Position numbers and translations under genes: made by a program. The notes beneath the pieces are model-generated. The model was not told the DNA's origin. It saw only the letters and a program-made list of their open reading frames with translations, and searched no databases. A DNA stretch of 64,000 nt, taken from an uncultured delta proteobacterium. GTDB lineage: Bacteria > Desulfobacterota > Syntrophobacteria > Syntrophobacterales > Syntrophobacteraceae. This document shows positions 43,103 to 64,000 of the stretch, piece by piece (position 1 is the stretch's first letter; every line of letters begins with the position of its first letter). Location of the stretch: positions 32,001 through 96,000 of the forward strand of contig CAWEHK010000025.1 of assembly GCA_963808625.1 (NCBI GenBank), read 5' to 3'.

Positions 43103-44183
43103 ATGTTCAATCGCCTGAAGAGTGTCGAAGAACGATATCTCCAGCTTGAGGAAGCGCTCAGCAACGCTGAAATCCTGTCCGATCAAAAGGAGTATCAGAA
43201 GACTACCAGGGAGCATGCTGAAATCGCTCCGGTGGTCGAGGCGTACCGGCAGTACCTGAGGCTCAGCAAGCAAATCCAGGAAAGCCAGGAACTCTCTGAG
43301 GCCGAGGATGATCCCGAAATGCGGGAGCTGTTCAGGCACGAGGTGACCCAGCTGCGGAAGGAACTCGGATGCGACCGAGACGGACGCTCAAGCTCATGCT
43401 GGCACCCAAGGACCCCAAGGACGACAAGAACGTCATCCTTGAAATCCGCGCCGGCACGGGTGGCGAGGAAGCCGCCCTCTTTGTCGCCGACCTCTTCCGG
43501 ATGTATTCCCGCTATGCCGAACTGCGCCGCTGGAAAGTCGAAATCCTGGATGCCCATCCGACCGGCATCGGCGGGCTCAAGGAAATCATCGCCGAAATCA
43601 ACGGCAAGGGGGCCTTCAGCCGGCTTGAAATACGAACGAGGGGTGCACCGGGTGCAGCGCGTGCCGGTGACGGAGAGCCAGGGAAGAATCCATACCTCGG
43701 CGGTGACCGTAGCGGTCCTTCCGGAAGCCGAAGAAGTCGGACGTTTACATCGATCCCAACGAGCTGCGCGTGGACGTGTTTCGTTCCTCCGGACCGGGCG
43801 GGCAAAGCGTAAACACCACTGATTCCGCCGTGCGCATCACCCACGTCCCCACCGGGTTGGTGGTGATCTGCCAGGACGAAAAATCACAGCACAAGAACAA
43901 GGCCAAAGCCCTGAAGGTGCTCCGCGCGCGTTTGCTTGATCAGATGCAAAGCGAGCAGGAGGCAAAGATCGCTCAGGATCGAAAGAGTCAGGTCGGCACC
44001 GGAGACCGGAGCGAGCGCATCCGAACGTACAATTTTCCCCAGAACCGGGTTTCGGACCACCGTATCAACCTCACCCTTTATAAACTGGATACCATTCTTG
44101 ACGGCGGCACCCTCGATGATATCATCGACCCCCTAAACACGCATTTTCAGGCAGAAGCCCTGAAGGGGCTGGGGTTGGGGTAA
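43103..44183 (+). CDS. prfA: Peptide chain release factor 1 (frameshifted)
   Basis: [19 protein letters not shown] (PxT) and GPGGQSVN motifs. Confidence 0.96.
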
Positions 44184-44330
44184 GGATTTGTCCAAGAATA
44201 ACTTGCTCTCTTTCAGAACCTCTTTCAAACACACGAAATACACGGAATACACGGAAAAATTATTCCTGGTTTTCCGTGTGTTTCGTGTGTTTCGTGGTGA
44301 AAGAAGATGATTTATTTTGGACGGCTTCAT
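44184..44330. mobile_element. MITE of the same family immediately after the prfA stop codon
   Basis: GTCCAAGAA...TATTTTGGAC ends enclosing a CACGGAATA/TTCGTGTGT hairpin. Confidence 0.7.
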
Positions 44331-44399
44331 GTTGCTCGCTGCTGCGCTGCCGACCTTCAAACAGCTCCTGGTAAGCAGCGCGTATCACGGAATTGAGGG

Positions 44400-45269
44400 A
44401 TGGAAGAGAGATGGACCGTGCTCAAGGTGCTCCAGTGGACGACGGAGTACTTCACCCTTAAGGGCATCGACCAGGCCCGCGCCAGCGCGGAAGTGCTGCT
44501 CGCTCATGTGCTGGGAGTGGAGCGCATCCAGCTCTACCTCAATTTCGATCGCCCCCTCGCCGCCGACGAACTGGCATCCTATCGGGCCTTGATTCGCCGC
44601 CGAGCGGCACGCGAACCGACGCAATACATCATCGGAAAACAGGAATTCTGGTCTCTCGAATTTGAAGTCACCCCGGCTGTTTTGATTCCACGCCCGGAAA
44701 CGGAACTGCTCGTCGAAAAGGCGCTCGCCCTCACCAGGGACACCTCGAAACGAGTGCTTGATCTGGGCACGGGCTCCGGGGCCATCGCCATTGCCCTCGC
44801 CCACGAATGCCCGAACCTTCGCGTCGTGGCCACAGACAGCTCTTGCGCCGCCCTTCTCGTGGCCAGGCGCAACGCCGCGCGCCATCATGTCGAAGAACCG
44901 CATCGCCCTGGTCGCCACCGATCTCTTTCACGGGTTTTCCGCTTCCACGCCCCGCTTTCGATGTCATTATCAGCAACCCTCCCTACATTGGTGAAAAAGA
45001 AATTCCTCAACTCGCTCCGGAAATAATAAAATACGAACCAAACACCGCCCTTCTGGCAGGCCCCCAGGGGCTGGCCGTCATTCGGCGAATTATTGGCGAG
45101 GCGCCGGCTTACCTGGCGAGGAGGCGGATCGTTGTTCCTGGAGATTGGGGCCGGGCAGGCAGAAATTCTGCGTACCGAACTGAGCGCGGGACCTTTTGCC
45201 GATCATTACGAATTCATTCGAGACTATTCGGGCATCCTGCGCATTTTGTGGTTGAGGGTTGAGGGTTGA
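44400..45269 (+). CDS. prmC: Release factor glutamine methyltransferase (frameshifted)
   Basis: LIPRPETE, DLGTGSG and SNPPY motifs; reconstructed end RDYSGILRILWLRVEG-stop. Confidence 0.93.
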
Positions 45270-45562
45270 TGGTTGTTGGTTGATGGTTGATGGTTGATGG
45301 TTGATGGTGGAGGGTTGATAGTTGAGGGGTGATGGTTGAGGGGTGAGGGTTGGTGGTTCAGGGTGAGGGCTTCTTTATTGGTTGTCGTGAAGAATGTTTC
45401 TTCAAGGTCATTGCAACCTTGGGCAGCGACTCACATCATTCGGAGCAAAAGAACCTTTCATGAAGATTCATACGGAGGCACATCCATCACCCACCCCCCT
45501 CCATCAACCATCAACCATCAACTCATCAACCATCAACCATCAACCATCAACCATCAACCATC
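45250..45562. repeat. Inverted pair of heptamer arrays (GGTTGAT)n ... (ATCAACC)n
   Basis: G-rich arm 45250-45368, ~120-nt unique spacer, C-rich arm about 45485-45562. Confidence 0.9.
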
Positions 45563-45580
45563 TACCCAAAAAGGTGAACA

Positions 45581-46833
<1,253 letters not shown>

Positions 46834-52348: not shown

Positions 52349-52882
52349 ATGCCTCGCAGCCGTTACCGCATACTCCACAGCCAATATCCACACTTCATGA
52401 CTGCAACCATCAACAACTGGCTGCCTCTCTTCACCTACCCCGAAGCGGTGACCATCGTTCTCGATTCCTGGCGGTTTCTACAGCAGAGCAGCCTCTTTGA
52501 GATCTTTGGTTATGTCATTCTCGAAAATCACCTGCATCTGGTTGCCCGTTCCCAAGACCTGAGCCGCGATATACAGCGGTTCAAATCCTACACCGCCAAG
52601 GCAATCGTGAGTTATCTACAGGCCCAAAACGCAACGCCATGGTTGCACCTGCTGGAATGGTTTAAACGCCCGCATAAAGGGCAATCCACCTATCAGGTTT
52701 GGGAGGAGGGCAGCCATCCGCAGATTATCGAAAGCGAAGCCGTGTTGAGGCAGAAGCTGGAGTATATTCATCAGAACCCAGTCAAGCGCGGTTATGTCGA
52801 TCTGGCTGAACACTGGCGTTATTCCAGCGCCCGGAATTATGCGGGGAAAGAGGGTTTGATAGAGGTTTGTAAGACATGGTAA
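52349..52882 (+). mobile_element. REP-associated tyrosine transposase (RAYT, HUH family)
   Basis: HFMTAT, YVILENHLHLV (HUH), FKSYTAK, EYIHQNPVKRG and WRYSSA motifs; flanked by palindromes. Confidence 0.92.
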
Positions 52883-53093: not shown

Positions 53094-53321
53094 TCAGGTT
53101 CGCGCTTCACGGCCTTCACGAATAATCTGGACCACTTCCTCTGTCGAGATATTCAGGCAGATGCCCTCACCATCCAAAGGGGAATCGCGGCGAACCTCAG
53201 GGGTGATCAGGAAAACCTGGCCGTCCTTGCGCACTATCCTGACTTCCCCCTCTGTTGCCGCCTGTTCCAGCAAACTCGCAAGGTTCTGCCGTGCCTTTGA
53301 AAAGTTGTAAAGAACAGCCAT
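53094..53321 (-). CDS. Phd/YefM family antitoxin
   Basis: YNFSKARQNLASLLEQA..EGEVRIVRKDG; RBS GGAGGTG. Confidence 0.85.
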   Translation of the reverse strand: MAVLYNFSKARQNLASLLEQAATEGEVRIVRKDGQVFLITPEVRRDSPLDGEGICLNISTEEVVQIIREGREART

Positions 53322-53590
53322 CAGCACACCTCCTTCACCTGGATGCCCATACTCTTCGCAGAGGCAACCAGATTTCGATCGAGCGAAACCAAAACGGCCC
53401 TGTATTTTTGAGCGCACCTGATGATGTAGGCATCGTATGCATAGATGTTCAGCTCATGAGCGATTTTCAACGACTGCTCCAGTTCGACATCGAGAAATCT
53501 TATGGGTATTTTTCCGTACACCTGCAAAGCCTTTAAGGCCTCGTCAGGGGTTATTCTCTTCCGCTTCAGCATGGCCGAGAAGGCATTATC
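53321..53590 (-). pseudogene. PIN-domain (VapC) toxin lacking its N-terminus
   Basis: NAFSAM, IYAYDAYII and LVSLDRNL motifs; first acidic motif absent, replaced by a palindromic repeat. Confidence 0.75.
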
Positions 53591-54357
53591 TCTGCCAACG
53601 GAGGGCGGGTTTTCCAACCCGTTATGAGCTCTTTCCTCGTCATCTCGACCGAAGGGAGAGATCGTTAAATGAACAGCCACAGATGAAGAACTCTCGCTTC
53701 GCTCGAAATGATAGCGTTGCCAAATTATTTAGGAATCGATCTACTAGTGTTCATCCGGAAACTGCGCATGTTTGAGTTCGGACTGAAGGGGAGGGGTTTT
53801 CCCCATATGCATCAAGCTAACTTTACGGCCCTGAAGGGGCTCGATAAATTAGCCCAGGGTCAGCGCTAGCGCCACCCTGGGGAGCCAGGTACAACACGAC
53901 TGTCTACCCTGAAGGGGTTGCATAAAACATAGCGGTACAACGATTTATTTAACCCTATGGACACTATCTAGACAAAGCGCTTAGTTTAGGATTTAATGCA
54001 TCGCCGACAACAATTCCGGTACTCAACGGCTCTTGAAGGAAATCATCTCTCCCAGCCGTCGCCTTAAAGTCATGCTTTATTGCCGTTCCGGGACCTTCAT
54101 AATGATGCTCAAATGCTCCAACAGCGCCAGGGAAGCTTTATCATGGGCATTCGAATTCAGTCCCCCAGCCTCACCGTCGTGGTTGACGATTCGCAAAGCC
54201 ATGGAAGACTCCAAAAGGCCGCCCCCTGGCCGCACCGTCACGGTTCACGATCAAATGAATCAATGGAAAGCAATCGGTCCGGAGCTTGTCCTGCTCCCTG
54301 GTTGTTCAGCGGCATAATAAGGAAATCCAATACGAGGAAGGGAAAGGAGCTTGACCA

Positions 54358-56979
54358 ATGAGCCCAACGGATGATCTGAAATGGCTTCGTGGAGGACGTC
54401 GTTTGATCCGGATGCTGGCTTCCGCCGGCTTGTTCTTCCTCCTGCTTCTAGCGGCGGGGTCGGGACCTCGGGCCGAAGGAACGGGCGCCGATGCCTTCCT
54501 TCGGTTTACGGCCGGCGGTCATGTTCTGGGCTTCGGGAAAAGCGCCCTGTACGTTGCCTCAGCCAACCACATGGTAAAGGTCGATTTGGCTGGAGGACGC
54601 GCGGTGGCGCCAGCCATGGAAGAAGGCGCGGTGTCAGGGGCGGGAGGCGCTTCCGGCAAGGCGCCGCCCCTCAGCCGGGTTGCCTACTCGGAGGTATGGG
54701 ATGGGGTAACGGTGATTTATGAAAAGCAGGACGACGCCATCTTGGAGAGCTCCTATGAGATAAAGGCGGGCGCAGGGAGAAAGGCTCTCGAACAAATCCG
54801 CCTGCACTACAACCGGCCGGTGCGTCTTGATGAGCAAGGCGATCTGATCATCCCCTGCAAAACCGGAGCGATGCGCGAACGCGCGCCAGTAGCGTGGCAG
54901 GAGACCGGCAGCGGGAGAAAGTACGTGACCGCGGCGTATCGCCTCATGAGCGAGCATGAGGTCGGGTTCGAGGTGGGTGACTACGAGGGTGGGCTTCCCC
55001 TCATGATCGACCCGACCATGACCTGGAACACCTTTCTCGGCGGCAATGATACGGATCAAGGCTATGGCATCGCTGTGGATGGAACTGGCAATGTCTACGT
55101 AGTAGGGGACAGTAATGACACCTGGGGCTCGCCTGTGCGCGCTTTTCAGGGTAACGGTGACGCCTTTGTGACGAAGCTTGACAGCAGTGGCAATCTTCTC
55201 TGGAGCACCTTCCTGGGCGGCGACGACTTCGATGAAGGCTTCGGCATTGCCGTGGATGGCAACCTGACCGCGAATGTTTACGTGACAGGATATAGTTGGG
55301 CCGGTTGGGGCGAGCCCGTGCAGGGATTTTCTGATTACAGCAACGCCTTTGCGGCGAGGCTCGCGAGCAATGGTGCGGTTGTCTGGAATACCTTTCTGGG
55401 CGGCGGCGAAGCAACAACCTATGGCCAAGCCATTGCTGTGGACAGTAATGCGACTGCGAATGTCTACGTGACCGGCTGGAGCGATGCCTCATGGGGTCCT
55501 TCGCCAGTCAGGCCTTACACAGGTTTGGATGATGCCTTTGCGGCCAGGCTCGGAAGTACTGGTGGGCTTGTCTGGAACACTTTTCTGGGGGGCAGCGGAC
55601 AGGATGCCGGCTATGGCATTGCTGTGGATCAAAATGGCAACGTCTACGTAGCAGGGGACAGCAATACCACGTGGAGCGAGGTACCGGTTCGACCATTTTC
55701 CGCCGGCGCGGACGCCTTTGCGGCGAAGCTTGACAGCAGCGGCAGTCTTACCTGGTATACCTTCCTGGGCGGGAGTGGCGAGGATCACGGAACCGTCATT
55801 GCGGTGGATGGCAATGCGACGGCAAACGCCTACGTGGCCGGATTCAGCTATGCTTCCTGGGGCTCGCCCGTCAATGCCTACTCGGGGGATGTAGATGCTT
55901 TTGCGGCCAGGCTTTCGAGCAATGGCGGGCTCCTTTGGAACAGCTTCCTGGGGAGCGAGAGCTATGATGACGGCCTTGGCATTGCCGTGGATAGAGACGG
56001 AAGTGTGCTTGTGACGGGTACCAGTACCGCCTCGTGGGGCTCGCCCCTGAGGGCGTTCTCGAATGCCGACAATCCCTCCGCCCACGATGCTTTTGTGGCA
56101 AAACTGAGTAGCAGTGGTTGGCTGACCTGGAATACCTTCCTCGGCGGCGAGCTGGCAACTACGTATGGCACGGCTGTAACCGTGGACACGATTACAAATG
56201 TCTACGTGACAGGTTATAGTGATTACACTTGGGGCTCGCCGGTGAGGGCACATTACCCATACGACCCGAACTCCAGCACCCTTGATGACGCCTTCGTCGC
56301 CAAGCTCCCGTCCACACCAACCCTGGTCGAGGTGGTTTCATTTCGTGCCAAAGCCGGAAGGGATTACATCGAGCTCACCTGGGAAACGGCTTCCGAGGTC
56401 CGGAACGTCGGCTTTTTCCTGTGGCGAAAAGGGAGCGGGGAGCGCTCCTCCGCCCGCATCAGCGGGTTCATTCCGTCCGAGAGCTTGTTTACCCTGGGCG
56501 CGAAGTATACCTATAAGGACATCGATGTGTTGCCGGGTGTCACCTACCGATACCGCCTGGAGGATGTCGATATCCACGACGGGAGAAGCTTTCACGGCCC
56601 GGTGGCGGCAACCATCGGCGATATCGTCACGGTCGCCCCGAAGCAGGGGAAAAAGGTCCCGGTTCGACCACGTCCTCGTTTCAGGTGGACCAGCGAGTAC
56701 TTCGACCGGTTCCGGCTGGAGTTCTCGGCAAGCCCCGGTTTTGAGTCAAAACAGGTGGTCGCCATCCCTCTGCCGAAAACTGGAGTAGCTGCCGCAAAGA
56801 CCCCGTGGCTCACGGCCCAGTCCTACACGCCTTTGGCTCGGGAATGGAAAGCGATCAACCGGCTTGGCTCCGGTGGCGGGCGCGTGTATTGGCGCGTAGA
56901 GGGGAAGAACAAACTGGGCGCCACGTTCCGCTCCAAAGCGAGTCATTTTTCCCTGGACCTCGGGCCTGCGTCCCAATGA
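54358..56979 (+). CDS. Secreted SBBP (seven-bladed beta-propeller) repeat protein
   Basis: Signal peptide; seven ~60-aa repeats W.TFLGG....G.GIAVD..NVYV.G.S...WG...DAF.AKL; C-terminal beta domain starting PTLVEVVSFRA. Confidence 0.9.
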   Translation: MSPTDDLKWLRGGRRLIRMLASAGLFFLLLLAAGSGPRAEGTGADAFLRFTAGGHVLGFGKSALYVASANHMVKVDLAGGRAVAPAMEEGAVSGAGGASGKAPPLSRVAYSEVWDGVTVIYEKQDDAILESSYEIKAGAGRKALEQIRLHYNRPVRLDEQGDLIIPCKTGAMRERAPVAWQETGSGRKYVTAAYRLMSEHEVGFEVGDYEGGLPLMIDPTMTWNTFLGGNDTDQGYGIAVDGTGNVYVVGDSNDTWGSPVRAFQGNGDAFVTKLDSSGNLLWSTFLGGDDFDEGFGIAVDGNLTANVYVTGYSWAGWGEPVQGFSDYSNAFAARLASNGAVVWNTFLGGGEATTYGQAIAVDSNATANVYVTGWSDASWGPSPVRPYTGLDDAFAARLGSTGGLVWNTFLGGSGQDAGYGIAVDQNGNVYVAGDSNTTWSEVPVRPFSAGADAFAAKLDSSGSLTWYTFLGGSGEDHGTVIAVDGNATANAYVAGFSYASWGSPVNAYSGDVDAFAARLSSNGGLLWNSFLGSESYDDGLGIAVDRDGSVLVTGTSTASWGSPLRAFSNADNPSAHDAFVAKLSSSGWLTWNTFLGGELATTYGTAVTVDTITNVYVTGYSDYTWGSPVRAHYPYDPNSSTLDDAFVAKLPSTPTLVEVVSFRAKAGRDYIELTWETASEVRNVGFFLWRKGSGERSSARISGFIPSESLFTLGAKYTYKDIDVLPGVTYRYRLEDVDIHDGRSFHGPVAATIGDIVTVAPKQGKKVPVRPRPRFRWTSEYFDRFRLEFSASPGFESKQVVAIPLPKTGVAAAKTPWLTAQSYTPLAREWKAINRLGSGGGRVYWRVEGKNKLGATFRSKASHFSLDLGPASQ

Positions 56980-57435
56980 GAATCCAGCCGTGGTGATATG
57001 GTTGCCGGTGCCGGCGGCAATGAGGACTCACGCTTCCTCGGGCAAACCCCGGTTCCTGCTGGATATTTGCAGCATCCCTGGTGATCCGGCCTTGACGATG
57101 AAATAGAGGGGCGGAAATCAGATTTTCCTATTGCTTTCAGGCGCATAATATTGTTATACGTAATCGTTGTTATGTAAATGAATCGGGGGTCGTCACAAAC
57201 CAACCTCTTGCGCTAACGAAGAATTGTAAACACATAAATTCAATCACTTATGACAGCGTCCCGGGGTGACGACCCTTGCGTTTGCGTCACATTGTTCGAG
57301 AACTGCTGCCGACGGTGCCGTAGCAAGGTCGGGGTTTATTTTCATCCCTCAGGGTGAACCGTGCTCCCCGTTCATGCCTGTTAAGCCTGGCACAGCGCCG
57401 CATAGAAGCGTGTCCAGGTTCCGTGCTTAGATGCG

Positions 57436-57600
57436 TAGGTTGGGTTTCGTTCCGTTGCGAAACACGCAGATAGTTTTGAATGTCCCGGGGAACGAAACCC
57501 AACAAGGGCCGACCAACTGAAGCGGAATGTTGGGTTTCCTTCCTGATCAGTCACGGCATTGTGAACCGCAATCATGGTGAGGAACGAAACCCAACCTGCG
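57436..57600. repeat. REP-like inverted repeats
   Basis: GTTGGGTTTCGTTCC / GGAACGAAACCCAAC in alternating orientation, four copies (one degenerate). Confidence 0.8.
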
Positions 57601-57655
57601 AGGCTGTTGAACGTGGTATTGTCTTTCCCCCTGAGATGAGTTTTGAGAGGCAGCA

Positions 57656-57943
57656 ATGAGCTTGGCGGCACAACCTATCCCCAATCCGGCAGTGCTTTTT
57701 CGAGAGGTACCCATGGATGAGTGGGCCGTCCTGTTCAATCCGGAGAACTTCTGTGCGATGTCCCTCAATGCCACCGGCGTGGTCGTGTGGAAATTGATCG
57801 ACGGGCGGCGCACGATCGCGGAGATCGTCGCGGGGGTGAAAGCCCATTTCAAGGACGTGCCGGACACGGTAACCGACGATATCGCCGCCCTGCTGAAAGT
57901 ACTGAGTGGCGACGGTTACGTGGGGTATGAGGTAACCGCATGA
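57656..57943 (+). CDS. scmD: PqqD-family RiPP recognition element (ScmD-like)
   Basis: PIPNPAVLFRE..DEWAVLFNPE....LNATG..VWKLIDGRRT. Confidence 0.85.
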   Translation: MSLAAQPIPNPAVLFREVPMDEWAVLFNPENFCAMSLNATGVVVWKLIDGRRTIAEIVAGVKAHFKDVPDTVTDDIAALLKVLSGDGYVGYEVTA

Positions 57944-58227
57944 AGACAAGACAGTATGTGGCCAATCCGGTCGTCTCCTGCCGTGAGGAGGAAGGGGGCG
58001 CTGTGCTCTTCAATCCCGATACCGACGATATGGTCATCATCAACCCCACCGGCCGGGTGATCTGGGACTTTCTCGCGACCCCTCGCAATACGGTGCAGGT
58101 AGCGGCTCACGTCGTAGAAAAGTTCCAGGGGGTTTCCCCCGAGCAGGCGGCGACCGATGCCGAAGCTTTCCTTCAGTCCCTGCTGCCGGACTTTATTCTG
58201 GAAGCGGAGGGGACTGATGAAGCCTGA
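57940..58227 (+). CDS. Second PqqD-family RRE protein
   Basis: NPVVSCREEEGGAVLFNPDT....INPTG..IW; ATGA overlap with the first RRE gene. Confidence 0.85.
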   Translation: MKTRQYVANPVVSCREEEGGAVLFNPDTDDMVIINPTGRVIWDFLATPRNTVQVAAHVVEKFQGVSPEQAATDAEAFLQSLLPDFILEAEGTDEA

Positions 58228-59359
58228 GTCGATGGCGGCCATGGACCTGACCGTCCCACCCAAGGGTGTGCCCCCGGCCCCGAGAACGGTCGACCTGTCT
58301 CTTACGGGTCGCTGCAACTTGCAATGCCGCTATTGTTTTTTCGCGGACTCGATGGCTGCGCTCACCGATCTCCCAACGGTGTCATGGCTCTCTTTCTTTG
58401 AGGAGCTTGGTGAGCTGGCGGTGCTGCGGGTGACCCTCTCCGGCGGGGAGGTCTTCACTCGCCCCGACTTGTTTCAATTGCTTGACGGCATCATCGCCGC
58501 CAGGATGCGCTATAGCCTGCTCTCCAACGGCACCCTCATCACCGAGCAGGTGATCCGCCGTTTTGAGGAAGGCAAGCGCCGTTTGCGCCTGGATTCCATC
58601 CAAATCTCCATCGATGGTTCCTGTGCCGAGGTCCACAACCGCAGTCGTCCGCCGGACAGCTTCGACCGCGCCCTGAATGGGCTCAAGCTGCTCAAGGCGA
58701 ACGGCTTTCCGGTGACGGTCCGGGTTACGGTGAACCGGCATAACCTCGACGACCTGGAAAACATTGCCCGTTTGCTGCTGGAAGATATTGGCCTGAGCGG
58801 GTTCGGTACCAATGAAGTTGAATTCATGGGCGCCGCCCGCTGCCACGGCCAGGAAGTGGTGCTGACGCCGGGAGAGCGCCGGCAGGCCATGGCTGCCCTG
58901 GTCGCCCTGAACGAGAAATATGAGGGCCGCATCAGCGCCAATGCCGGGCCCCTCGCCGCGGCAAAGTCATTCTCGGACATCGAAGCCAGGCTGGCCCAGG
59001 GGGAGACGCACATGCCGGGTCGGGGGACCCTCTGCTCATGCGGCGGGGTCTTCAGCAAGATGGCAGTCCTCCACGACGGCGCGATGGTCCCCTGCGACAT
59101 GCTCCCCACTCTGGTCATGGGCAGGGCGGGCAAAGATCCCTTGCGCGATGCCTGGCTCCATCACCCGGCCATCAACGCCGTGCGAGCCCGGCGGGAGGTC
59201 CCCCTCAGCTCGCTCGCCACCTGCCGGGGCTGCCCTTACACCGGGTTCTGTGCGGGTGGGTGTCCGGCGTCGGTGATGGCCAAATATAGTCGTCTCGATG
59301 CCCGCGACCCCCTTTGCTGCTACCGGATCTACCGGGGAGAAGAGAGGGTTGATGGTTGA
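58217..59359 (+). CDS. scmE: Radical SAM/SPASM maturase, ScmE-like
   Basis: CNLQCRYC, LSGGE, SIQISIDG; SPASM cysteines CSCGG..PC..CRGCPYTGFCAGGCPA. Confidence 0.85.
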   Translation: MKPESMAAMDLTVPPKGVPPAPRTVDLSLTGRCNLQCRYCFFADSMAALTDLPTVSWLSFFEELGELAVLRVTLSGGEVFTRPDLFQLLDGIIAARMRYSLLSNGTLITEQVIRRFEEGKRRLRLDSIQISIDGSCAEVHNRSRPPDSFDRALNGLKLLKANGFPVTVRVTVNRHNLDDLENIARLLLEDIGLSGFGTNEVEFMGAARCHGQEVVLTPGERRQAMAALVALNEKYEGRISANAGPLAAAKSFSDIEARLAQGETHMPGRGTLCSCGGVFSKMAVLHDGAMVPCDMLPTLVMGRAGKDPLRDAWLHHPAINAVRARREVPLSSLATCRGCPYTGFCAGGCPASVMAKYSRLDARDPLCCYRIYRGEERVDG

Positions 59360-59402
59360 TAGTTGATGGTTGATAGTTGAGGGTTGAGGGTTGATGGTTG
59401 AT
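59347..59402 (+). repeat. (GGTTGAT)n array overlapping the scmE stop
   Basis: About eight units. Confidence 0.9.
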
Positions 59403-59660
59403 ATGCTCGTTTGGGTTGATAACCTTGATTTTGGCGGACTTGGGAATTAACCGCAGAGCACGCTGAGATCGCAGAGAAAGCCAATGATTCTTTCTGTGGC
59501 CTCTGTACTACTAAGGTTCAAATTGTTTAAATCTTATCAAGATTTTTGCTTAACTTTTTGTTTTCTCCGCGTTCTCTGCGTTCTCTGCGGTGGAAGAATA
59601 AATATTTGAACCTTTACGAGTATGGTTGATGGATCTACCAGGGAGAAGAGCTTGAGTTCC

Positions 59661-60830
59661 ATGAGCTTGTGTGATTTTATGGAACCGGATAACGGCCAGA
59701 GCGGACCGCTGCCCCAGGATCTGCCCGAGGGCGTGCCGCCGCTTCGAGCCTTTTACCTTTATCTCTCCACCAGCTGCAACCTGCGCTGTCGCCACTGCTG
59801 GATCACCCCGAGCTTTGTCGACGGCATTCCGGCTGGCCGAGGACGTAATTCCGGTGGAAGCGCTCCGGGATGCCGTGATCGAGGCCAAACCGCTGGGCCT
59901 CTGCCACGCCAAGCTGACTGGCGGGGAACCCCTCCTGCACCCGCGCTTTGTCGGAATCGTGGACATGCTGACGGCCGAGGGGTTGCAGATGAATATGGAA
60001 ACCAACGGCACGCTGATGACTGCCGAGCTTGGCCGCCATCTCAAGGAGAAGACCAACGTCAGCTTCATCTCGATCAGCCTGGATGGGGCCGACGCCAAAA
60101 CTCACGACCGGTTTCGCGGCGTGGTCGGGGCTTACGATGCGGCGTTGAGAGGATTGGCGCACCTGACGGATGCTGGATACAGCAACGTTCAGGTGATCAT
60201 GAGCGTCCATCGCGGCAACCTGGACCAGATCGATGGCCTGGTGCGGCTGGTGGCGGACCGCGGTGCGGGATCGGTCAAGTTCAACCCGGTTAGCTTTGCC
60301 GGGCGGGGAACCACCATGCATGAGCGGGGGGAGACCCTGGACTACGAGGAGCGGATGGCCCTGGCCGCGGCCGTTCGAGAGGAGTTGCCAGAGACGTTTC
60401 TCCATCCCCCTCATCTGCTTTCATCCACCGGCCCAGAAATCCATGCGGCACCTGTGGGATACCTCGCCGACAGCCCACCGATTGCGGGGTCCGCCACATT
60501 CTGGGCATCCTGGGGACGGGGGACATTGCCTTGTGCGGGATCGGCCGGACCGTCCCCGAGCTGGTCTACGGGCAACTGGGGAAAAACAGCATCCGGGAGA
60601 TCTGGTTGACACATCCCACGATCCTCGAGCTCCGCCGGCTTCTGGACGACTTCAGGAATTTTCCCGGCATATGCGGCCGGTGCATCCATGCCAAAACCTG
60701 CCGCACGGGCTGTGTCGCGATGAACTATGTCGACGCTCGGCAACTCGTCTGGCCGGACCCGCTGTGCCAGGAGTCAGAACGACGAGGGCTGTTTCCGGCC
60801 AGCCGGAAAAGGAAATCCGGCGGCCCTTGA
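59661..60830 (+). CDS. scmF: Radical SAM/SPASM maturase, ScmF-like (frameshifted)
   Basis: FYLYLSTSCNLRCRHCWITP, KLTGGEP, ALCGIG and GICGRCIHAKTCRTGCVAMNY motifs. Confidence 0.85.
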
Positions 60831-61032
60831 GCAGCGAACACCTCAAGGAAAGCACATCATAGCAATCGAGTACACGTGGGCCGAAATAAGTAGCCAGTTC
60901 CGGTGGGCACGGTGAAGCTGTGCCCACCCTACAGTGTTCCCGGACCCGTAGGGTGGGCAGGTTTTTTGCCCACCGCAAACATGCACGAACTTATACCCAT
61001 GTGTACTAGAGAGATGAGTGTTCATGAGGGCC

Positions 61033-61048
61033 TGGCATTATTTATGCA
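61033..61048 (+). promoter_or_regulatory. Possible sigma54 promoter upstream of the precursor gene
   Basis: TGGCATTATTTATGCA (GG-N10-GC). Confidence 0.4.
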
Positions 61049-61256
61049 TCTCAACAGTCGAAAGTTGCGTTTGTTCTATCATTCTGGATGCCCGCCAGAA
61101 GCACGCGGGCATGACGATAGTTGGCCTGTTGCCGCACCGTCATTCCCGCAGGCTTTTGGCGGGAATCCAGAAACTGAGACAAATCTAGGATTTCACCCTT
61201 AACGAGTATAGAATGATCATTTTCATGTATAATGAACCTTTGCAGGGAGAAGCGAC

Positions 61257-61496
61257 GTGTTGAAAAATGGAAAGGACGATCTGACGGACCGGCGGCCAAC
61301 ATACGAACCACCACAGGCCTTACGCATGGATGATATCCATGCAGGGGCAGGTGGGCAGGATTGTACCTCTGGCGCTAGCGCTGGAGGTGCTAACTGCGCT
61401 ACGGGCGGCGCCGCTATCGGTGGACAGTGTATTAGTCCAGGGACTTCTGCTGCTACTGGTCAATGTAAATTTGGTGATGGAGCCTCTACATTTTAG
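61257..61496 (+). CDS. RiPP precursor peptide, ScmA-like
   Basis: RBS GGGAG; leader with YEPP motif; Gly/Ala/Ser/Thr-rich core with four regularly spaced Cys; lies inside the maturase cluster. Confidence 0.8.
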   Translation: MLKNGKDDLTDRRPTYEPPQALRMDDIHAGAGGQDCTSGASAGGANCATGGAAIGGQCISPGTSAATGQCKFGDGASTF

Positions 61497-61561
61497 GGCG
61501 CAAGACTTACGGAGCTTTTGTGCCATGGGTGGAGGAACTCGATGAAAGCAGGGACCGGCGG

Positions 61562-62520
61562 ATGGGGTTCGATTCGTCTCAAAAGAACTTTGGGGTCTTC
61601 TCCTGCGGGGGGGTTACTCTGATTCTAACACCATCCTCCACATATAGCCTTCCCCTTGCTGACGGGACCTGCTGGCTGGTTCGGGCCGGCGTCCCGGAGG
61701 CTGAGCACGTGGTGGCCCGTCTTGGAGCGGCTATGGAACTGCCGCCGGGCGGCGGCTCCGGCCGGGAACTGGTGGTTGGGTTCCACGGCCACCAGGCTTC
61801 CTCACCTGCTGCCCTGCGTGCAGCCCAGGGACCATCAGTGTGTCTGGTGAGCCCTCCCTGCAACGGGGAGAGGTTCGCCTTTCAGGCTATGCAGATATCC
61901 ATGACCATCGTCAGGGATGCGCAGGTCCGTGGGGGATTGCTCATTCACGGCGCGCTGGCCGCGTGGCAGGGGTCCGCTGAAAAGGCCGGCGGAATGGTTT
62001 CGGGTGCCATCATGGCGGGGCCGGGTAGCGTCGGGAAGACTACGGCCAGCAGTCGCCTGTCCGGCCCCTGGCGGTCCCTCAGCGATGACATGACCCTGGT
62101 GGTTCGTGACCCTCAAGGCCATTACTGGGCGCATCCCTGGCCCACCTGGGGGCGGTTTTTGGAAAATGCGGCCGGCGTTTCCTGGCCGGTGCCGCAGGGC
62201 CGTGCCCCTGCGGGCCGTTTTTTTCCTTTCCCAATCGCCCAACGACTCGGTAACCCCACTCAACACCGCCCAAACAATCGCCCTGCTGATCGAATCCGTG
62301 CAGCAGGCCTCCTCGCCCATGGTCTGCGCGTTGCCGGAGACCGAGGCTGCGGCTGTCTATGAGGAACAACTGGCGGCGGCCAGCGAGCTCGCCCGGACCA
62401 TCCCTGCCTACCGGCTCAGCATAAGCCTGGACGGCGCCTTCTGGAAGGAAATGGAAAGCGTGCTCGCGGCGGCCCCAGCCCGCCCGGTTGCATCTCGCCG
62501 AGCGTCACCCCCTTCGCCTC
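61562..62520 (+). CDS. scmC: ScmC-like P-loop (HPr-kinase-like) protein, frameshifted; probably continuous with the downstream peptidase
   Basis: GLLIHGALA, AGPGSVGKTT, LSDDMTLV, YWAHPWPTW and PLRAVFFLSQ motifs. Confidence 0.8.
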
Positions 62521-63175
62521 GGGTGCGACTGCCCGGAAGGTCCCCCGCTGCCGGTCGTCTACACCGGTCCCAGCATGAACCCCACCCTGCAGGGAGCCGG
62601 ACCTGCTGGAGGTGGTCCCTTACGACGGAAGAGCGGTGTGCAAGGGGGACGTCATCTATTTCCACCCGCCGGGTGGGGGGCTCGCGGTCGTCCACCGGGT
62701 CGCGCGGGTCTTGCGGGAAGGCGTCCGCACCCGGGGAGACAACAACCCGATGGAAGACCCTTATTCTGTGCCTCATTCGGCCATTATCGGGCAGGTCGTA
62801 GCCGCGCAGCGGGATGGGCGTCGCCGCCGCGTCGCTGGCGGCTGGCAAGGCCGGATGCAATACCACCTGGCGAGGCTTGAAGGCACCGCGCTGCGCCTGG
62901 GCCAGAGACTCTTGAGCCGGCTGTACCAGGGGCTGGCAAGGTCCGGTCTCTTTCGCCAGGTCCTCCCCCCGAGGCTCACCCCCCGCCTGGTCGGGTTCGA
63001 AACGAGACGCGGCAGGCAGCTCAAGGTGATGATGGGAAGCCGTGCGGTAGCCCACTACCACCCGCTCGGGAGAGTGTGGCAGGTTCGTCGGCCCTTTCGC
63101 CTGTTTGTGGATGAGGCCGTTCTGCCCCGGCCCGAGAGCGAATTCCCTCAATCAGCCCCAGCGCTGGTGAAATAA
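62521..63175 (+). CDS. S24/S26-family peptidase domain (frameshifted)
   Basis: YTGPSMNPTL (catalytic Ser), GDVIYF, VVHRV and TRGDNN motifs. Confidence 0.8.
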
Positions 63176-63471
63176 CTGCAAGCAGATACCAGAACGCCCT
63201 CCATCTTTTTTATCCACGAATTCACACGAAGATTTGTGAAGACACACGAAGAACTCACTTCGTGGTCTTCGTGATCTTCGTGCTCTTCGTGGTGAAAGAT
63301 AAGGTGGTCTTTTGATTCATGCGCAGGGCCGGGTCCGCCAAGAACGCTGACCACGGTGATGGAGACTGGGTTGGGCATTGTACTGAAGCAGCCCAGTGGA
63401 TCGGTAACGCGGACCGTGCAGGCCCCAAGCGGCGAAATGGAGAAGCGGTAGTGTGGTCGTCATGATCAAGT

Positions 63472-63573
63472 CTAGATGAAGACGTATTGCCCCTGCGTTG
63501 CTATAATGTCCACGGCATCGGGCAGTCCCTCGGCAAAGTCACAGTAAGTGTTGGTATCAAGGACCAGCTTCAC
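63472..63573 (-). pseudogene. VapC/PIN toxin, N-terminal 33 aa only
   Basis: GTGA overlap with the antitoxin; MKLVLDTNTYCDF...YVFI then stop. Confidence 0.65.
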
Positions 63574-63809
63574 TCCCAGTCCCCTTCGTGGATCTCATTG
63601 AAGACCCGTAGTGAAGCTCGCAGCTCATCCGCTTCCTCGCGAGTCATCCAACCCGCCAGCTCACGAACCAGCTTTTCGCGATTTTTCAGCAAGCCAAGCT
63701 TTTCATCAATAGCCTCAAGGATAAAAGCCGTCTTGGATTTTCCGGCTCTTCCTGCAACTTTTCGAATTATCGCCTCTTTCTCAGAAGGAATCCTCAGACT
63801 CACGGGCAT
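63570..63809 (-). CDS. Ribbon-helix-helix (CopG-like) antitoxin
   Basis: PVSLRIP....GKSKTAFILEAIDEKL; RBS GGAGGTG; C-terminus LAGWM..EEADE. Confidence 0.8.
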   Translation of the reverse strand: MPVSLRIPSEKEAIIRKVAGRAGKSKTAFILEAIDEKLGLLKNREKLVRELAGWMTREEADELRASLRVFNEIHEGDWE

Positions 63810-64000
63810 GGTTGATCACCTCCATGTATCGCCTTCGTGCGTTTTGTATCTCAAATGGAGGGTGCTGTCAATTTTCTTCATCCACGAAGACACACCAACA
63901 CGAAGACACACGAGCCTCTTGCAAAACTCAATAAGACCGTCACCCCGCTAGAAATGGCGGATACATCGGAAGTCACTGACCTACACTCTAGCGCGCATCC

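Follow-up and report, generated by a model that had tools for sequence, protein, structure and literature searches.

In the genome of an uncultured member of the Syntrophobacteraceae, a short ORF with periodically spaced cysteines lies between genes for a radical SAM/SPASM enzyme of the ScmF type and an HprK-like protein of the ScmC type. Does this ORF encode the substrate of the cassette around it, to which precursor family does it belong, and what might the cassette enzymes do to it? We approached these questions through the window, that is, the whole stretch of 64,000 nucleotides analyzed here (contig CAWEHK010000025.1, positions 32,001 to 96,000), and its homologous loci. The SynChlorMet cassette is of a kind already catalogued, and the case for reading the window ORF as its precursor is strong; we consider it very probable that the window peptide is the substrate of its own cassette. 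To our knowledge, RiPPs common to anaerobic bacteria and methanogens have been little studied. What the present work contributes is the breadth of the family past its catalogued model TIGR04252, the correspondence with the LPP gene set, and a specific ring chemistry that can be tested.

Table 1. Cassette and precursor features, numbered from the first letter of the window
Feature	Coordinates	Strand	Evidence or detail
ScmD-like RRE 1 (PqqD family)	57656..57943	+	TIGR04248 72 bits (cut-off 100), PF05402
ScmD-like RRE 2 (PqqD family)	57940..58227	+	TIGR04248 37.7 bits, PF05402
ScmE-like radical SAM/SPASM enzyme, frame intact, candidate thioether former	58217..59359	+	TIGR04250 388 bits (cut-off 400)
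ScmF-like radical SAM/SPASM enzyme, four segments, three frameshifts	59661..60830	+	TIGR04251 in three ORFs; tblastn
Dispersed palindromic repeat between ScmF and precursor	60896..60980	.	Fold z=-6.1; 35 genome blastn matches
Shine-Dalgarno-like AGGGAG, 7 nt 5' of GTG	61244..61249	+	Sequence
Most likely ScmA-type precursor, 79 aa	61257..61496	+	Translation, held-out HMM match, same slot as canonical ScmA
Leader, residues 1-33	61257..61355	+	YxxP at residues 16-19 (61302-61313)
Core, four Cys modules (Cys36, 47, 58, 70)	61356..61493	+	Gly at +3 in three modules, at +4 in one
ScmC (HprK-like), likely fused to SpI/S26-like peptidase; four frame segments, start uncertain	61562..63175	+	TIGR04249, TIGR02228

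A short ORF with a T-rich core

The ORF runs from a GTG start to a TAG stop over 79 codons, its leader motif reads YEPP, and its cysteines are spaced 11, 11, and 12 residues apart in three CxxG modules and one CxxxG module, the latter at the third cysteine. A preliminary description of this DNA had reported the ORF, its translation, the YxxP leader, this spacing and the prevalence of CxxG, all of which we reproduced from the sequence. When the core was shuffled, all spacings of 10-13 together with at least three CxxG recurred in 39 of 200,000 shuffles, for a pattern picked after the peptide was seen. AlphaFold2 gave the precursor a mean pLDDT of 54, with the core below 50. A perfect TATAAT hexamer lies 23 nt 5' of the start (61228-61233) without a matching -35 element, and a sigma-70 promoter scan of 60780-61720 returned no call.

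The core codons had also been described as ending in T far more often than those of the neighboring genes, and this is borne out: T occupies 54% of the third positions in the 46 core codons, compared with 15% in ScmE, 14% in the first ScmD gene, 21% in a beta-propeller gene further upstream, and 18% for the precursor leader. At four-fold sites the core has T in 16 of 29 cases; 1828 long stop-to-stop frames of its own genome, non-coding frames among them, reach 0.17 at the median and 0.33 at the 99th percentile. Since in 33 of 43 related precursors the core likewise exceeds the ScmE gene at its own locus in T (means of about 0.28 and 0.15), the T richness is a family trait. High-expression codon bias was ruled out as its cause, the corresponding values being 0.15 for EF-Tu, 0.17 for GroEL, and 0.22 for rplB; our guess is that these codons lower the GC content of Gly/Ala-rich repeats. 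One related precursor (L100, G104:C125:5144-5392) has an in-frame TGA three codons 5' of another Cys module. Selenocysteine read-through was rejected, as this TGA lies outside the Cys slots and the window ORF stops with TAG.

The cassette and its assembly state

The genes are ordered ScmD-ScmD-ScmE-ScmF-peptide-ScmC/S26, and the best-scoring families for the neighbors of the precursor are the ScmC, ScmD, ScmE, and ScmF models (Table 1). ScmE and the better of the two ScmD copies score below their curated cut-offs, and ScmF and ScmC are split across frames; the ScmC proteins of two relatives (L008 and L040) pass the curated cut-off. In the intact relatives L007, L008, and L032, ScmC and the peptidase form a single protein colinear with the four frame segments of the window, and ScmF aligns to the window in the same manner. 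The ScmC pieces in the window hold the His-Lys-Asp-Asp residues of the kinase, and the peptidase pieces hold the Ser, His, and Asp motifs. The window cassette lacks an ABC pump or exporter and an NTP transferase, homologues of which are found on other contigs of the genome, C15 (40%) and C51 (35%), the latter in a polysaccharide locus. Neither a lasso cyclase nor a B2 cysteine protease was found among the cassette ORFs or the identified conserved co-occurring families, and an Rfam scan of 56900-64000 gave no match.

ScmF and ScmC/S26 together carry six frameshifts in two genes. Were these real, the cassette would be decaying, with the peptide still made and its maturation incomplete, and the absent exporter and NTP transferase would fit such decay. 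We regard this as very improbable, because all six shifts step the frame in one direction, the aligned segments hold no in-frame stop, the ScmF segments are still 38-75% identical to an intact relative, and prfA, prmC, and murA elsewhere in the window (43103-46804) are split across frames just as ScmF and ScmC/S26 are (59661-63175). From the one-way steps and these split genes, we infer that the ScmF and ScmC frameshifts are probably assembly errors. The assembly seems to contain many small indel errors, which makes other "broken gene" calls in this genome suspect. Because of its frameshifts the window copy is a poor specimen, and the intact relatives L008, L004, and L046 are better ones.

Breadth of the precursor family

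A scan for ScmE yielded 72 loci, 57 of which (L001-L057) share at least 40% identity over most or a long part of the protein. Precursors were found at 39 of these 57 loci, 37 by an HMM seeded from those loci and two more by motif, with three weak HMM matches (L007:15137, L041:17571, and L057:19701) left out of the count. Both the YxxP motif and the Cys periodicity are conserved in them. The proposal that the window ORF encodes a RiPP-type precursor for the adjoining ScmE/ScmF cassette is thus upheld, as homologous small ORFs are kept in homologous clusters. Twelve of the 18 precursor-less loci are shorter than 8 kb. At the 23 loci of at least 15 kb, a precursor is present in 21, ScmF in 23, ScmC in 22, an S26 peptidase in 20, an NTP transferase in 17, and an ABC pump in 14; at 13 control loci of unrelated radical SAM enzymes (L060-L072), the precursor HMM found nothing. 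Both long loci without a precursor have one about 14-16 kb further on, beside S26- and nucleotidyltransferase-like ORFs. These two were among three positives when five genomes were searched whole for their absent precursors; none was found in the other two genomes.

Among 96 genomes of the order, 10 carry ScmE and four match the precursor profile, all four within those 10. G092 has a canonical ScmA instead of a profile-matching precursor, G045 has a YxxP/CxxG peptide, and G084 has two short WxxP Cys peptides directly 3' of ScmF (L101:6085-6520). The cassette of G084 (L101) is a minimal ScmD-E-F set in a genome without ScmC. In G068, one WxxP peptide lies beside a different radical SAM gene nearby; in G023, ScmE is on a 3.4 kb contig; and no precursor was found in 11 kb at the G080 cassette.

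A profile search of the database retrieved 179 family proteins, and among the 120 matches listed none is assigned to a Pfam family or carries a functional name. In the 118 of these 120 with a readable leader, the Tyr and the Pro(+3), Leu(+8), Gly(+14), and Gly(+16) that follow it are 97-100% conserved. Gly stands at Cys+3 for 775 of 880 cysteines in the same 118 proteins (after shuffling, 18% on average and 21% at most), and of 762 spacings between cysteines 583 fall between 9 and 13 (19% after shuffling); these homologues come mostly from one subfamily and are related to one another, so the counts are non-independent. The more diverse locus set has CxxG at 202 of 279 cysteines, and in the window peptide's own clade Gly+3 is weaker and CxxxG common. 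Across the database homologues, no residue of a module other than its cysteine is invariant.

These results bear on the reading of the ORF as a chance frame in intergenic DNA, which had some initial appeal: the peptide matches nothing in Pfam or NCBIfam, a single-sequence homologue search returned no homologue, and the ESM Atlas offered only three unnamed clusters at 0.91-0.93 with a recognition score slightly below threshold, a weak result. Against this stand the synteny, the ribosome-binding site, the 179 family proteins, and an HMM built from window-free seeds. This HMM matched the ORF with E=1.5e-8, and no other of 109,502 frames of the genome passed its inclusion threshold (the runner-up was at E=0.34), although a motif inspired by the window peptide had guided the choice of seeds. 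The chance-frame reading is effectively refuted, and we give it a minimal probability.

Several loci depart from the single-precursor arrangement. L058 (4150-8385) and L009 (12285-15689) have tandem units of a precursor followed by a ScmC-like or similar-sized gene, and there may be one kinase per precursor; the three precursors of L058 accompany a very divergent ScmE (27%). A Methanothrix locus (L007:12321-15264) has five precursors and two ScmF copies, a natural substrate library. Precursors at L041:9065-9550 and L057:9030-9623 carry long Gly-Thr or poly-Gly inserts 3' of the first module, which suggests that the enzymes tolerate spacers of any length.

Relation to the catalogued ScmA precursors

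NCBIfam has a precursor model for the SynChlorMet cassette, TIGR04252 (SCM_precur_ScmA), and its existence led us to reject the view that the precursor of this cassette is uncatalogued. The window peptide does not match TIGR04252 (cut-off 35 bits) even at E<=10, and none of 47 relatives in our alignment (A1) reaches 35 bits, with 9 of 47-48 matching weakly at best 23.2 bits. The canonical member in G092 scores 76 bits and lies between ScmF and ScmC, with a WxxP leader and four CxxG modules. Our family profile from A1 matches canonical ScmA by hhalign with a probability of 93.8 and E=1.7e-7; a short leader HMM failed to find the canonical ScmA in G092. Given the shared slot and the hhalign match, the window peptide is most likely a divergent ScmA-type precursor outside the TIGR04252 model, and the precursor family is far larger than TIGR04252 detects. 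The two systems share the gene set, the slot between ScmF and ScmC, and an aromatic-x-x-Pro leader followed by CxxG modules of about 10 residues. They differ in that the window has YxxP where the canonical member seen has WxxP, has two RREs, and has a ScmC likely fused to the peptidase.

A literature search by SynChlorMet and TIGR identifiers, with most subscription journals outside its coverage, returned no chemical study and no experiment on any Scm enzyme. The available parts of the supplements of PMC10288494 and PMC12710340 hold no Scm names and no family motifs.

Predicted leader recognition, cleavage, and phosphorylation

In several RiPP classes, YxxP and WxxP are established as motifs that RREs recognize (PMC12710340). 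The closest parallel to the leader side of the cassette is the LPP pathway (Popov et al. 2026, PMC13381572), whose clusters are described as encoding a YxxP precursor, a discrete RRE, an SpI-like peptidase, an HprK-like kinase, an NTP transferase, plus a pump resembling MsbA. The first four are shared with the window cassette; the NTP transferase and pump are absent from it and present in 17 and 14, respectively, of the 23 long relatives, so that counterparts of the whole LPP gene set occur among Scm clusters. According to the same report, the LPP peptidase cuts the leader only when the RRE is present, and phosphorylation by the kinase takes place on a Ser close to the beginning of the core (PMC13381572). 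Differences are equally clear. Radical SAM enzymes are absent from the LPP core gene set, and none is mentioned in the main text of that report, whereas Scm adds two SPASM enzymes; the leaders differ after YxxP; and LPP cores are variable and come from Bacillota, whereas the Scm core consists of Cys repeats.

This mirroring supports cleavage within the GAGG stretch and suggests phosphorylation. The preliminary description had placed cleavage near AGAGG, which, by analogy to LPP, fits the conserved Gly residues and the co-encoded SpI-like peptidase; the cut would fall after one of residues 30-33. We regard RRE-guided cleavage by the SpI-like domain as probable. Phosphorylation by ScmC, again by analogy, is reasonably likely. 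The ScmC relatives resemble HprK_rel_A (E=1.2e-6) and, to a weak degree, HPr kinase structures (E=0.006), and they keep the His, Lys, Asp, and Asp of the motif described for lasso-peptide kinases (PMC9266682). In the database homologues, Thr or Ser follows the Cys in 74% of modules and is a candidate phosphorylation site. Paeninodin-type lasso peptides share with Scm a YxxP-type leader, a PqqD-like RRE, the His-Lys-Asp-Asp kinase, and a nucleotidyltransferase; they differ from it in that Scm has no lasso cyclase, cysteine protease, or conserved C-terminal Ser.

Candidate chemistry of the core

For the core, the preliminary description had guessed at iterative thioether crosslinking of the sactipeptide or ranthipeptide kind. 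ScmE and ScmF each carry the SAM-cluster motif and seven SPASM cysteines, kept in at least 95% of the aligned rows. CteB, with the same Cys layout, is described as having an open AuxI site (PMC6231123), and in PapB and Tte1186 a substrate chalcogen binds an auxiliary cluster (PMC10177961). We compared six active-site positions chosen after PMC10288494, with a picking procedure that reproduces that paper's CteB residues from the alignment. ScmE has F/Y, S/A/T, L, S, N (D in the window), and M at these positions; the references have Y, T, I, S, K, L (StsB), Y, T, F, S, Q, L (SkfB), and F, F, T, S, H, Q (CteB). With five of six positions similar, the ScmE site is nearer to StsB and SkfB than to CteB, PqqE, SuiB, or anSME. 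The odd one out is position 5, where N/D stands against the Lys of StsB and the D matches anSME. SkfB is also the top structure match of ScmE. On the StsB model, whose cut-off is 625, the ScmE sequence reaches only 94.6 bits.

StsB is reported to make Cys-Gly sactionines on a precursor with a WxxP leader, helped by a discrete RRE (PMC10288494, PMC12710340), and Gly can be linked at its alpha-carbon only (PMC10288494). The Scm system resembles StsA/StsB/StsC (Precord et al. 2023, PMC10288494) and SkfB in its W/YxxP leader and discrete RRE, and the residues at five of the six site positions are similar. It differs from StsA, which forms a nested three-ring hairpin, in having cysteines 10-12 apart and in the serial rings proposed here. 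On the basis of the sactisynthase-like site of ScmE and the Gly at Cys+3, our best guess is a series of Cys-to-Cα thioethers. We put thioethers to an alpha-carbon at an even chance, and the more specific assignment of Gly at Cys+3 as the acceptor is tentative and falls short of even; this Gly may merely be a turn residue.

The ranthipeptide half of the earlier guess, in which each Cys would be joined to a carbon in a side chain at a distance of a few residues, as in PapB, CteB, and CrpC, appears weaker than the sactipeptide half: the Cys is not followed by a conserved Asp/Glu acceptor, and the ScmE site is unlike that of CteB. There are points in its favor: the ScmE profile aligns to the SPASM domain of CteB, closely at the start of the domain, and in a methanogen CrpC is reported to turn repeated short Cys motifs into short serial rings (PMC13692751). 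CrpA/CrpC of Methanococcus voltae, like PapB and CteB, pair a SPASM enzyme with tandem Cys motifs and short rings (PMC13692751), as Scm would, but they differ by belonging to the family TIGR04463 and by having 17-residue repeats, C-x-x-Q/D motifs, and a non-alpha linkage (PMC13692751). In Scm no Asp, Glu, or Asn is conserved after the Cys, the conserved partner is a Gly that could be linked only at its alpha-carbon (PMC10288494), and site positions 2, 3, 5, and 6 of ScmE are unlike those of CteB. We therefore consider non-alpha thioethers improbable as the candidate chemistry.

A precursor without thioethers has a better claim and is, in our estimate, unlikely rather than remote: the core residues would be oxidized, epimerized, or otherwise modified, and the cysteines left free or used as metal ligands. 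In 47 of 55 ScmE rows, that of the window included, and in 24 of 44 ScmF rows, the first SPASM Cys is accompanied by an extra, eighth Cys. This residue could fill the open AuxI site, which in those ScmE rows would then be fully ligated as in the non-thioether enzymes anSME, SuiB, and PqqE (PMC6231123). The same reading draws on a near-invariant Cys in a DGSC motif of ScmE (54 of 55), on the near-invariant ScmF site W, T, E, S, G, I (44 rows), which matches none of the six comparable reference enzymes, and on a core made almost entirely of Gly, Ala, Thr, Ser, and Val. However, the eighth Cys shifts between two positions and is missing from 8 of 55 ScmE and 20 of 44 ScmF rows, SkfB is reported to have a spare Cys and yet an open site (PMC6231123), and Cys is the sole invariant residue of each module.

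Proposed pathway

In the mechanism that we favor, an RRE would likely bind the YxxP leader of the precursor, ScmE would likely join each Cys sulfur to a nearby alpha-carbon to give four small serial rings, and ScmF would likely add a second radical modification. ScmC would phosphorylate a Ser/Thr of the precursor, and a cut inside the GAGG stretch would be made by the SpI-like peptidase. Taken as a whole, an ScmA-type precursor that is RRE-bound, ScmE-crosslinked, ScmC-phosphorylated, and SpI-cleaved is the best explanation of the locus, and we lean slightly toward it. A bolder picture, which we consider possible but doubtful, is that SynChlorMet is an LPP-type phosphopeptide pathway with two added radical SAM enzymes. 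It would make an undescribed RiPP class of tandem four-residue Cys-to-Gly alpha-thioether rings that is phosphorylated, perhaps glycosylated, and subject to a second ScmF reaction, encoded by a cassette moving between anaerobic bacteria and methanogenic archaea. With a named substrate, a likely cut site, and LPP-like helper genes, the two uncharacterized SPASM enzymes become amenable to co-expression.

History of the cassette and its surroundings

The window ScmE shares 63-67% identity with copies in Methanoregula, Methanothrix, and a Chloroflexota bin, and 43-47% with the nine ScmE proteins of its own family. In a FastTree phylogeny of 64 rows, it falls into a group with 99% support together with seven methanogen and two Chloroflexota rows. 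A tree grouping it with eight own-family rows was rejected (p-AU 1.5e-5) in a test on 32 rows with a quick tree, for a group named after the tree was seen and with L086 left out. These comparisons make horizontal movement of the cassette likely. The contig of the window carries bacterial housekeeping genes, and bins can hold misplaced contigs.

Palindromic or short-unit repeats of three kinds flank the cassette genes at 60896-60980, 57426-57605, and 59331-59620, with 35, 10, and 69 blastn matches in the genome; the first, between ScmF and the precursor, is spread across the genome and not specific to the cassette. A gene for a REP-associated tyrosine transposase lies at 52349-52882. Upstream, the cassette is flanked by a Phd/YefM-PIN toxin-antitoxin-like pair (53094-53680) and a beta-propeller (SBBP) protein (54358-56979), and directly downstream by a RelB-like antitoxin (63570-63809). 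Fragmented large ORFs resembling surface proteins lie further downstream on the same contig (G000:C25 beyond 96000), and at two other loci (L013:13692-21113 and L018:14164-20604) a related giant SdrD-B protein is encoded between ScmF and the precursor.
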